From: Escherichia phage JP4
Strand: one strand, 5' to 3'
Sequence record: PQ330092
DNA: 64,000 nucleotides
Part shown: positions 23,549 through 25,455 of the stretch, piece after piece
Numbering within the stretch: position 1 is the first letter of the stretch
Layout: each line of letters opens with the position of its first letter
The notes under the pieces: generated by a model
Database searches by the model: none
The model's input: the letters and a program-made list of their open reading frames with translations, nothing else
Told to the model about the DNA's origin: nothing
Program-made: the position numbers and the translations under genes

Positions 23549-23932
23549 ATGGTTGATAAATGGAATAAGAAAGATCCATCACATGATGTTGATATTTCTG
23601 GTCTAGACAATGCACATAAGCACAAGTATCTAGATTCACTAGGTCTTCTAAAACCAGACCAAAGTCTTGCACATGATCGTCCATCCCGTGAAAAAGCATT
23701 TAGCCTAGAATCACTAGGTCATGAGCTTAATCGTGTGTTTGAGGATCACCCAATCTATGTACGTGATATTATCGAGAAACTTAAAGTAACTCCTAAAGAG
23801 CACTTTAAAGCAACTGTACACTCTGCATTCCGTGCATTACATGAATCTCTAAAGAAAACTCACAATCTTCGTAAAATTCATGATGAAATCGTGAATGCAA
23901 TCGAAAGTGAAAAACATAAGTTCAAGAAGTAA
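23549..23932 (+). CDS. hypothetical protein (short paralog of 24178-25455)
   Basis: Shares YLDSLGLLKPDQ and VTPKEHFKATVHSAF motifs with the larger neighbour. Confidence 0.55.
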   Translation: MVDKWNKKDPSHDVDISGLDNAHKHKYLDSLGLLKPDQSLAHDRPSREKAFSLESLGHELNRVFEDHPIYVRDIIEKLKVTPKEHFKATVHSAFRALHESLKKTHNLRKIHDEIVNAIESEKHKFKK

Positions 23933-23939
23933 TAAAAAG

Positions 23940-23972
23940 GGGTTGACTAAGGTCAGCCCTTTGTTGTATCAT
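23940..23972 (+). promoter_or_regulatory. fused terminator-promoter module (variant)
   Basis: gggttgac-taag-gtcagccc hairpin, weak T-run, TATCAT 18 nt after TTGACT. Confidence 0.45.
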
Positions 23973-24001
23973 AAATTCTCAATATAACTGAGGTATCATA
24001 T

Positions 24002-24115
24002 ATGCAAGGTTTGAAATTTGTAGTTGCTGCACTCATCGCCGCAGTACTGGTTGGTGGTGTATTCTATGTAGTGGATCAAAAAGTAAATCCACCTGCACAA
24101 GAACAATCTAAGTAA
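24002..24115 (+). CDS. 37-aa membrane peptide (absent from ORF track)
   Basis: MQGLKFVVAALIAAVLVGGVFYVVDQK..; gagg SD; sits between two terminator-promoter modules. Confidence 0.4.
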   Translation: MQGLKFVVAALIAAVLVGGVFYVVDQKVNPPAQEQSK

Positions 24116-24123
24116 CAAAATAA

Positions 24124-24161
24124 GGTTGACTTCGGTCAGCCTTTTCTTTATACTATAAATA
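24124..24161 (+). promoter_or_regulatory. fused terminator-promoter module
   Basis: ggttgacttcggtcagcc hairpin, T-run, TATACT 17 nt after TTGACT, adjacent TATAAATA. Confidence 0.55.
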
Positions 24162-24177
24162 TAGACATAGAGAAAAA

Positions 24178-25455
24178 ATGAAATCTATGGAGAGAAATCA
24201 AATGCCAAGTAATTTTACTGATAAAAATGGTGGTAACATGGCTGGTCACTCTGATAAATGGAGTGAACGCAACCGCCGTCCAAATAGTTATCAAGCAGGT
24301 CAAGGTTCACGTGGATCACGTAACCAAGGAACTGGTCTAGCTGGTAAAGCAAACGCAGAAGCAGGTGAAGTTAAGAGTACTGAGAACATGACTGAGCTAG
24401 AAAAGCTACGTTATGTTAATTCATTGGGACTTCTTAATGCTACACAAAAACAACGCCTAGCTGATATGGAACGTGAAGAAAAAGAAAAATCTGCTCCTGC
24501 TAAAGAAGAACCAAAACAAGAAGCACCAAAGGCGGTTAACCCTGTCAAAGAACTGTCGGATAAGTTAGGTAAGATTTTTGCTAATAAACCACAACTTATC
24601 CAAGGTATTGTGAAAGAATTGCAATCTGTACCTAAAGAAGAATTAAAAGTCAAAGCACAAGCTGTGCTTGATGCAATGAGTGGAAATACCAGTACTGAAC
24701 CAACTGAAGTATTCAGTACTATAATGCGTGCACTTGAAGGTACGCAACAAGGTGATGTGCCTGCACAAGAGGAAGTAAGTCTTGAAAGCGTACTTAAAAC
24801 ATTTGATAGTATTGGTAAAGAAGACCGTGCTAATGCTCAAAAAGTTAAGAATGTACTAGCTAAGTTAGAAAACCGTCTGGAAGGTAAAGACGATAAGATT
24901 AAATTAGTATCTGATGCAGTTAACGATGCACTTAAATCTTATGTACAAGGTGAAAAGAGTCGTTTTGTAACTGCAATGGATGCTGCATTCAATACTATGA
25001 AAAAGTATGAAGCTGATCATGGTGAGAAGGTTACACGAGATGGTTATCTGATGCGTGATGATGAAGAAGGTGCAGTAGAACAGAACGATGTTCATTCAGA
25101 CGAAGAAATTGATGACATGGAAGCTGAACTGTCACAAGACCGCCAAATGACTGAAAAATCCCATAACGAACTACAGAAATTAATGCAATGGGTTGCAGAT
25201 GTTGGTGAAAAAGCTGGTGCTGATAAGAAGAGTATAAACCGAAATCTTAGTTGGATTAAAGATAAAGTTGGTAACAACGCTCGTAAACTACAAAAAGCGT
25301 GGACTGATGTAGTGAATGGTGCTGTTGATATTGATGTTGAATCCGGTGAGGCATATGATTATGCATTGACTACACTTGATGACTCTTTCCGTGATTACGA
25401 AAATGGAAATGTAACTCCTTGGGAAAAGGACATCATGAGCAAATACGGTAAATGA
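24178..25455 (+). CDS. hypothetical charge-rich protein
   Basis: 425-aa ORF, rich in K/E/D/Q with coiled-coil-like composition. Confidence 0.6.
   Translation: MKSMERNQMPSNFTDKNGGNMAGHSDKWSERNRRPNSYQAGQGSRGSRNQGTGLAGKANAEAGEVKSTENMTELEKLRYVNSLGLLNATQKQRLADMEREEKEKSAPAKEEPKQEAPKAVNPVKELSDKLGKIFANKPQLIQGIVKELQSVPKEELKVKAQAVLDAMSGNTSTEPTEVFSTIMRALEGTQQGDVPAQEEVSLESVLKTFDSIGKEDRANAQKVKNVLAKLENRLEGKDDKIKLVSDAVNDALKSYVQGEKSRFVTAMDAAFNTMKKYEADHGEKVTRDGYLMRDDEEGAVEQNDVHSDEEIDDMEAELSQDRQMTEKSHNELQKLMQWVADVGEKAGADKKSINRNLSWIKDKVGNNARKLQKAWTDVVNGAVDIDVESGEAYDYALTTLDDSFRDYENGNVTPWEKDIMSKYGK

Follow-up and report, generated by a model that had tools for sequence, protein, structure and literature searches.

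Short and long paralogous virion proteins of Escherichia phage JP4, members of a family confined to Rak2-like jumbo phages

The stretch of DNA analyzed here, 64,000 nucleotides (nt) of the genome of Escherichia phage JP4 (sequence record PQ330092; hereafter, the window), contains between positions 23549 and 25455 a short and a long gene whose products had been predicted, from the sequence alone, to be paralogs separated by a small membrane-peptide gene. Three open reading frames (ORFs) are present where this original prediction placed them, at 23549-23932, 24002-24115 and 24178-25455, all on the + strand. The first (23549-23932) encodes the short paralog, a protein of 127 amino acids (aa; 14.83 kDa, pI 9.05) that corresponds to gp199 of phage 121Q and gp037c of phage phAPEC6; the second (24002-24115) encodes a 37-aa single-pass membrane peptide (121Q gp200, phAPEC6 gp036c, phrog_35037); and the third encodes the long paralog (121Q gp201, phAPEC6 gp035c). 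The region 23400-25600 is 99.9% identical to the corresponding region of Escherichia phage vB_EcoM_E9.1, 99.7% identical to that of phAPEC6 and ~91% identical to those of 121Q and PBECO4; these four phages belong to Asteriusvirus, a genus of jumbo myoviruses within the Rak2-like group, and the window, too, derives from an Asteriusvirus jumbo coliphage. The calculated mass of the short protein agrees with the mass of phAPEC6 gp037c, and both the short and the long protein are labeled ‘virion structural protein’ in several GenBank records.

The mechanically called long ORF (24178-25455) has the 425 codons originally predicted, but the actual gene is most likely shorter, starting at the ATG at 24202 rather than at 24178 and encoding 417 aa (24202-25455, + strand; 46.39 kDa, pI 5.1). 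This start is favored because it is preceded, 7 nt upstream, by a GGAGAG Shine-Dalgarno sequence, because the same start is annotated in relatives, because distant homologs align from that methionine onward, and because 46.39 kDa is the mass reported for phAPEC6 gp035c.

Direct alignment of the two proteins leaves little room for chance similarity, so that the predicted paralogy can be considered real. A BLASTP comparison yields 24% identity across 119 aa (E 4e-8); the Smith-Waterman score is 79, whereas shuffled sequences average 35.6 +/- 5.6 (n=2000, none at 79; z 7.8); and hhalign, applied to the alignments of short and long orthologs, returns a probability of 97.1% over 110 columns (E 5.4e-11). 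In profile searches, the short protein matches phrog_16530 (E 3.6e-56) and the long protein matches phrog_20398 (E 1.8e-179), the latter also producing a clear match to the family of the short protein, phrog_16530 (E 5.6e-38). The two sequence blocks on which the prediction had been built fare differently: SLGLL is exact in both proteins, while (K/E)VTPKE is only approximate, the short protein having VTPKE and the long one SVPKE. A third motif common to both, DKW, lies near the N-terminus and had been missed. No further paralog was found in the 64-kb window, where the next best ORF scored an E of 0.011.

Judged from these profile matches, phrog_16530 and phrog_20398 are one family with a shared N-terminal module. 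The members of the two PHROGs include 121Q gp199 and gp201, phAPEC6 gp037c and gp035c, RaK2 gp275, K64-1 gp344, CBB_38, GAP32_032 and gp027 of Serratia phage BF, and the proteins of the window are either the same proteins or direct homologs, with no difference in kind. Relatives detected by tblastn are confined to Rak2-like jumbo phages, namely those of the genera Asteriusvirus, Alcyoneusvirus (RaK2, K64-1), Mimasvirus (CBB, GAP32) and Eneladusvirus (BF, fHe-Yen9-04, Erwinia phages), the Munch/7t3 group, and Xanthomonas phage XbC2. Among 5.8 billion clustered proteins, a word-indexed profile search identified 99 family matches, and an exhaustive HMMER scan of 1.84 billion representative proteins identified 34 at E <= 1e-3; many family matches are located on contigs of ~350 kb.

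The domain architecture of the family was read from alignments, with motif columns scored on an alignment of 76 sequences. The core consists of three parts, a conserved N-terminal peptide (consensus MP..F..K.G...GHSDKW...NR..S..AGQGSRGSRNQGTG..GK.NT..S...DTSKM.PEEKLKYF.SLGLL), a variable linker and a four-helix bundle (..KVF...P.YI..I...LK..PKE..K....A..A..). The N-terminal peptide is rich in Gly, Ser, Arg, Asn and Gln, and ends in an amphipathic helix (..EKLKYF.SLGLL). It is complete in the long paralog (KW...SRNQGTG...DTSKM.PEEKLKYF.SLGLL), where, according to the alignments, dN/dS values and AlphaFold model, it occupies residues 1-85 (24202-24456; MP..F..KNG...GHSDKW...AGQGSRGSRNQGTG... followed by the LGLL helix). 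A variable Pro/Glu/Lys-rich linker follows (residues 86-112, 24457-24537), and then the helical module (..KIFANKPQLIQGIVKELQSVPKE..; residues 113-185, 24538-24756), which is homologous to residues 53-126 of the short protein. The remainder, residues 186-417 (24757-25452), is an all-alpha C-terminal extension that is found in long forms only. The short paralog retains DKW, followed by PSHDVD.S.LD..HK.KY..SLGLL, a linker and the four-helix bundle (residues 53-126), and lacks the Gly/Ser/Arg-rich SRNQGTG segment. Despite its pI of 9.05, the short protein carries a net charge of only about +3; the long paralog, acidic as a whole, has an N-terminal stretch of 55 residues with a pI of 10.4.

In the AlphaFold model of the long protein, the N-terminal peptide is predicted to be disordered as far as its last helix, mean pLDDT being 44-58 at residues 1-60 and 81-85 at residues 61-85, that is, in the LGLL helix. 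In the C-terminal extension, residues 194-273 and residues 306-414 are confidently modeled as helical domains, and the disordered linker between them (286-301; approximately 25060-25110 in the window) is the length-polymorphic hotspot of the long paralog: in 121Q-type phages, an additional helical segment of ~80-95 aa is inserted at this site (L001 7660-7950). This insertion has no detectable similarity to the remainder of the long protein, nor does the long protein contain internal repeats detectable as self-similarity. Near-full-length long forms span 412 to 606 aa, the 606-aa form being that of JNE01.

Comparison with a divergent member of Asteriusvirus, vB_Ec-M-J, indicates dN/dS values of 0.025 for the short paralog and, within the long protein, 0.037 for residues 1-85, 0.08 for the bundle (113-185) and 0.14-0.23 for the C-terminal extension. 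Residues 1-85 are under the strongest constraint, both within the long protein and across the family as a whole. The most distant relatives retrieved by the exhaustive search retain KW...SRNQGTG...DT.KM.PEEK..Y..LG, while their helical part is barely recognizable. Because the best-conserved element of the family is predicted to be disordered, it could be a linear motif that binds a conserved partner.

The phyletic distribution of the different forms suggests the following history. A single copy of ~155-173 aa is present in CBB (172 aa), GAP32 and BF; in RaK2-type phages, the only copy is a long one (556-565 aa); two separate loci, with copies of 126 aa and 177 aa, are found in the Munch/7t3 group; and the adjacent short and long pair is the Asteriusvirus arrangement. 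The ancestral form would thus have been a single-copy protein of ~155-180 aa resembling those of CBB, GAP32 and BF. After a duplication in the Asteriusvirus lineage, one copy would have shed ~30 N-terminal residues to become the 127-aa protein, and the other would have acquired the helical C-terminal extension of ~230-400 aa, with one linker subject to the gain and loss of entire segments. Two metagenomic proteins, P0076 (known from a 1.6-kb contig with uninformative genomic context) and P0080, combine a complete N-terminal peptide with a bundle closely resembling that of the short paralog, and such intermediates suggest that the 127-aa form was born by deletion of ~30 residues of the Gly/Ser/Arg-rich segment.

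The presence of these proteins in virions, which the original prediction had offered as a guess, has been documented by mass spectrometry (MS). In the virion of phAPEC6, analyzed by ESI-MS/MS, gp035c was represented by 8 unique peptides (28.8% coverage) and gp037c by 5 peptides (48.0% coverage) (PMC7247149, Table 1); gp037c is 100% identical to the short protein and gp035c is 99.8% identical to the long protein of the window. In RaK2, the 565-aa gp275 was detected in the virion with 20 unique peptides (34.3% coverage), a peptide count second in the proteome behind the tail sheath alone (PMC3622015, Table S3), and in CBB, the 172-aa CBB_38 was detected with 9 peptides (56.6% coverage; PMC5259590, Table 4). 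Given these published data on phAPEC6, RaK2 and CBB, virion association is experimentally established in three genera. The Sharanji paper includes no proteomic or transcript data on these genes.

Each of the two genes is preceded by an exact copy of the T4-type late-promoter motif TATAAATA, located at 23505-23512 (+), 44 nt before the short gene (counted from the first base of the motif to the ATG), and at 24154-24161 (+), 48 nt before the ATG at 24202. These are the only 2 copies in the window, both on the + strand, compared with 14.4 +/- 3.6 expected; the octamer is strongly avoided in this AT-rich genome. The copy at the short gene is conserved in 121Q, the motif also precedes the long homologs of K64-1 and RCIP0023, and ATAAATA precedes 7t3_0190. 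In 50 kb of the morphogenesis region of phAPEC6, TATAAATA occurs 6 times, always in intergenic positions 24-55 nt upstream of genes on the same strand. The products of these genes include endonuclease VII, the virion protein gp238, the scaffold and the major capsid protein, and the annotation places gp237c, a ‘sigma factor for late transcription’, in their vicinity. At the capsid and scaffold genes, the motif has the spacing seen at the JP4 paralogs. Likewise, ATAAATA precedes structural genes of CBB and GAP32, and a gp55-like sigma factor has been reported as well (PMC5259590). Given that the octamer is avoided in the window and is always intergenic ahead of gene starts in phAPEC6, it can serve as a putative near-specific marker of late promoters in Asteriusvirus. 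The resemblance to the late units of T4, which are read by gp55, extends to the exact TATAAATA motif 44-48 nt before the starts and to the gp55-like sigma factors of phAPEC6 and CBB; it does not extend to gp33 and gp45, homologs of which were not found in the clade of CBB (PMC5259590), and in the case of the JP4 genes, promoter use is deduced from sequence. A sigma-70-like match upstream of the short gene (23441-23470, +; TTGGGA-N18-TATAAT with TG) is a consensus match only.

Each paralog is followed by a member of a family of terminator hairpins, GGTTGAC-N4-GTCAGCC with a T-run, the cores of which are located at 23941, 24124 and 25466. Thus, the two terminator-promoter modules that had been predicted on either side of the 37-aa gene are recovered, with hairpins at 23941 and 24124 that belong to an 8-copy family (0.1 copies expected). 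The first module (23937-23972, +) has the hairpin GGGTTGAC-TAAG-GTCAGCCC followed by a T-run (dG -18.3 kcal/mol), with a TTGACT -35 box and a weak -10 box, TATCAT; the second (24122-24154, +) has the hairpin AAGGTTGAC-TTCG-GTCAGCCTT (dG -12.4 kcal/mol), with TTGACT and a TATACT -10 box; and the third (25464-25485, +; core 25466-25483, dG -14.8 kcal/mol) ends the long gene. All copies in the window are on the + strand, between 20.7 and 34.5 kb (20698, 23941, 24124, 25466, 26551, 31164, 33109 and 34523). The consensus continues into TTTTTGCTATAAT, and the full bifunctional module is aaaaGGGTTGACTTCGGTCAGCCcTTTTTGCTATAAT; since TTGACT lies within the 5′ arm of the GC-rich stem and TATAAT is found downstream at a suitable spacing, the module appears to include a sigma-70 promoter with an extended -10. 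The -10 boxes are weaker in the three modules around the virion genes (TATCAT, TATACT and TAAATA). The same hairpin/promoter module is present in K64-1, RCIP0023 and 7t3, and appears to be the standard means of punctuating the early region. Each paralog would accordingly constitute its own late transcription unit, comprising a TATAAATA promoter, presumably read by the gp55-like late sigma factor of the phage, a single gene and a hairpin terminator. As the neighbors of the two genes are small genes and the gene for a T7 gp0.7-like kinase, they would be isolated late units within an early region.

Our preferred interpretation, to which we assign a probability of about 0.55 as a whole, is that these two genes are paralogs from a small family restricted to Rak2-like phages and that their products are virion components, expressed as late units and most likely located inside the head. 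The conserved N-terminal peptide would anchor the protein, or target it, to a conserved partner in the virion, with the helical part hanging from a flexible tether. The most likely site would be the head interior, where the proteins could be packaged with the DNA, either as internal, ejected proteins or as components of an inner body. This location is favored over others because the proteins are hydrophilic, all-alpha with disordered segments and fairly abundant, because their genes lie outside the structural clusters, as do those of the T4 internal proteins, and because phAPEC6 has an inner body with proteins yet to be assigned. Genes for the T4 internal proteins are found among early genes, outside the morphogenesis clusters. 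The predicted structures of the paralogs show no beta-rich decoration or fiber fold. The inner body of phAPEC6 has been described (PMC7247149).

Several observations weigh against this interpretation. Whole-virion MS cannot separate the head interior from the capsid surface, the hair-like fibers or the tail. The T4-type cleavage and capsid-targeting motif, (L/I)xE, does not reach 50% in any column of the 76-sequence alignment, and the long protein has an acidic pI of 5.1, whereas the internal proteins of T4 are basic. The structure models are of moderate confidence (pLDDT ~70) and produce no fold match that would guide the assignment of a function. With regard to late expression, the single-copy genes of CBB, GAP32 and BF lack TATAAATA and have a sigma-70-like promoter instead, and RCC1-like virion proteins encoded in the same window are also without TATAAATA, so that not every virion gene here bears this motif.

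The comparison with known internal proteins is similarly two-sided. Like IPI, IPII, IPIII and Alt of T4, the proteins of this family are virion proteins that are encoded away from the morphogenesis clusters, have their own late promoters and occur in several forms that are related or vary in size, and the phage encodes a prohead protease similar to gp21 of T4; unlike the T4 proteins, to which they show no sequence or fold similarity, they have no N-terminal targeting sequence with an (L/I)xE site, and the long paralog is acidic. The inner-body and ejection paralogs of phiKZ, 201phi2-1 and SPN3US are likewise a family of hydrophilic virion paralogs in jumbo phages, and the inner body of phAPEC6 was seen by bubblegram. 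However, the phiKZ-type proteins have no sequence similarity to the paralogs described here: PHROG, BFVD and PDB searches for similarity to phiKZ gp89/90/93/95/97/162 returned only members of the Rak2-like family, and the authors of the phAPEC6 study found no homolog of any phiKZ inner-body protein in that phage (PMC7247149). An internal location of the paralogs is plausible. It is a more tentative proposition, which we would put well short of an even chance, that the N-terminal peptide (GHSDKW...AGQGSRGSRNQGTG...DTSKM.PEEKLKYF.SLGLL) is an undescribed capsid-incorporation or anchoring signal that loads cargo of variable size into the heads of Rak2-like phages, and that the proteins make up the inner body or an ejected bolus in phages of the phAPEC6/121Q type.

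The main rival to an internal location, which we regard as possible though doubtful, is that the proteins are external accessory components of the virion, such as decoration or cement proteins, a fiber-anchoring protein at the hexamer centers, or part of the hair-like fibers of the head and tail. In that case, the variable helical part would lie exposed, held by an N-terminal peptide inserted in the lattice of the capsid or sheath. The combination of a conserved anchor, a flexible linker and an indel-prone, variable distal domain would suit an exposed appendage, the MS coverage is fairly high, and the decoration, fiber-anchoring and hair proteins are still unassigned in phAPEC6 and CBB (PMC7247149; PMC5259590). 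The all-alpha, highly charged fold of the paralogs nevertheless differs from the beta-rich folds of decoration and fiber proteins, and the genes are far from the head and tail clusters. Decoration and fiber proteins usually have beta-rich folds. Furthermore, the dN/dS of the variable part, at 0.14-0.23, is well below 1, so that there is no sign of diversifying selection.

We consider it improbable that the proteins are assembly factors, that is, scaffold- or chaperone-like core proteins of the prohead, only residual copies or fragments of which would remain in the mature particle. A helical, charged and partly disordered protein is typical of scaffolds, and T4-type prohead cores leave fragments in heads; in addition, A-[L/I]-E occurs at the end of the shared module in 50 of the 76 sequences and might, as a matter of speculation, be a protease cleavage site. 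Nonetheless, coverage of 29-57% and up to 20 peptides in the mature virions of three genera imply a stable and fairly abundant component, no (L/I)xE site is conserved, and a dedicated scaffold (gp226c) and a T4-like core protease (gp227c) are encoded next to the major capsid gene of phAPEC6. The original prediction of internal virion or scaffold-like proteins is therefore upheld with respect to the virion, by the published MS data, and is unlikely to hold with respect to a scaffold, because the proteins persist in mature virions and the genus has a dedicated scaffold; nor do the paralog genes, which lie among early genes, adjoin the gene for the major capsid protein, as is expected of a scaffold together with absence from mature particles.

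It is very improbable that the long protein acts in chromosome segregation or DNA handling in the manner of SMC/SbcC and co-purified with the DNA without being structural: the GenBank note on phAPEC6 gp035c, labeled ‘chromosome segregation protein’, cites a weak SbcC/SMC similarity (0.039), and other DNA-metabolism proteins are found in the phAPEC6 virion proteome, but similarity of this kind is produced by charged helical sequence, the homologous module stands alone as a virion component of ~170 aa in CBB, and the search for ATPase heads or a hinge among Pfam, PDB and fold matches, and for an ATPase motif, was negative. More generally, Pfam searches returned sub-threshold noise only (Tau95, Med16 and similar), and PDB searches with single sequences and profiles produced nothing below an E of 0.08, the best matches being to generic four-helix bundles such as ferritin. 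Foldseek comparison of the two AlphaFold models with the PDB gave best E values of 1.5 and 2.8, and comparison with BFVD retrieved family members only; PADLOC returned no match. The literature on the high-resolution capsid structure and on the internal or ejection proteins of this clade yielded nothing beyond the 10-A map of phAPEC6.

The proteins themselves, their virion association and their annotation are already public, and what the present analysis adds is incremental: the unification of two PHROGs, the domain history, the corrected start, the layout of late promoters and terminators, and the constrained N-terminal peptide. Under this scheme, one clade-specific family of virion proteins, with a defined architecture, can replace the two PHROGs and many ‘hypothetical protein’ annotations, and phAPEC6 gp035c no longer needs to be called a ‘chromosome segregation protein’, a name that misleads. 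As TATAAATA is nearly absent except at true late promoters, it is a simple aid to late-gene annotation in Asteriusvirus genomes. The N-terminal peptide is a concrete candidate for virion targeting in phages whose inner-body and decoration proteins are unassigned; should it prove to be a true targeting signal, foreign proteins could be packaged into jumbo phage particles with its help, much as has been done with the T4 capsid-targeting sequence. The practical value is modest, and interest would rise if the peptide were a new capsid-targeting signal or the family were inner-body material.

The 37-aa gene that separates the paralogs, between the two hairpin modules, is conserved, and it is a real, independent gene that does not belong to the paralog family. 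It has a GAGG Shine-Dalgarno sequence and encodes a single hydrophobic span (LKFVVAALIAAVLVGGVFYVV). Among the closely related records, 19 contain the gene, 18 of them in identical form; in vB_Ec-M-J, its length and transmembrane segment are kept despite differences at 43 of 114 nt (dN/dS ~0.2). Its transcription would start from the sigma-70 promoter that forms part of the terminator hairpin. In vB_Ec-M-J, the corresponding slot (L011 1804-2482, equivalent to 24002-24150 of the window) holds three small genes: downstream of the 37-aa gene are one for a multi-span membrane protein of 87 aa, with the annotation ‘immunity to superinfection’, and one for a secreted protein of 98 aa that has a signal peptide. 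Between the paralogs there is thus a slot for small membrane-protein genes, where genes are gained and lost.

Downstream of the long gene, a mechanically called ORF (25452-25778, +) overlaps its stop codon and contains the hairpin at 25466-25483; the real start of this ORF is probably at ~25527 (83 aa), given the hairpin inside it, a PHROG match and the signal-peptide-like N-terminus MKKYIIFGIVLFSSTAYG. The T7 gp0.7-like serine/threonine kinase is encoded ~1.1 kb downstream of the paralogs (26578-27252, +; phrog_15752, E 2.5e-97) and is itself preceded by a hairpin/promoter module; its presence supports the early or host-takeover character of the neighborhood, and the other neighbors are small genes with typical early or host-takeover content. 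On the - strand, at 39382-53652, about a dozen consecutive ORFs of ~245-460 aa form an array; the 3 that were scanned all contain RCC1-like repeats. This array corresponds to the ‘DNA condensation protein’ virion proteins gp003-gp010 of phAPEC6, which were proposed by the authors of that study as inner-body candidates (PMC7247149). Because no member of the array is preceded by TATAAATA, it must use another or a distant promoter.

In CBB, GAP32 and BF, the family gene is located ~2-2.5 kb downstream of a gene for an SPFH/Band-7 protein (~2.0-3.0 kb upstream in L007 of CBB and L008 of GAP32; L004 1503-2360). The CBB protein, CBB_29, is itself a virion protein (8 peptides), and both this gene and the family gene of CBB are part of the terminal repeat. 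The sigma-70-like promoter ahead of the family gene in these three phages, TTGACA-N17-TATAAT, lies inside an inverted repeat (CCCCTAA...TTAGGGG) that covers the -10 box (L007 2900-3000, L008 2900-3000 and L004 3740-3841) and could be either an operator or an RNA hairpin.

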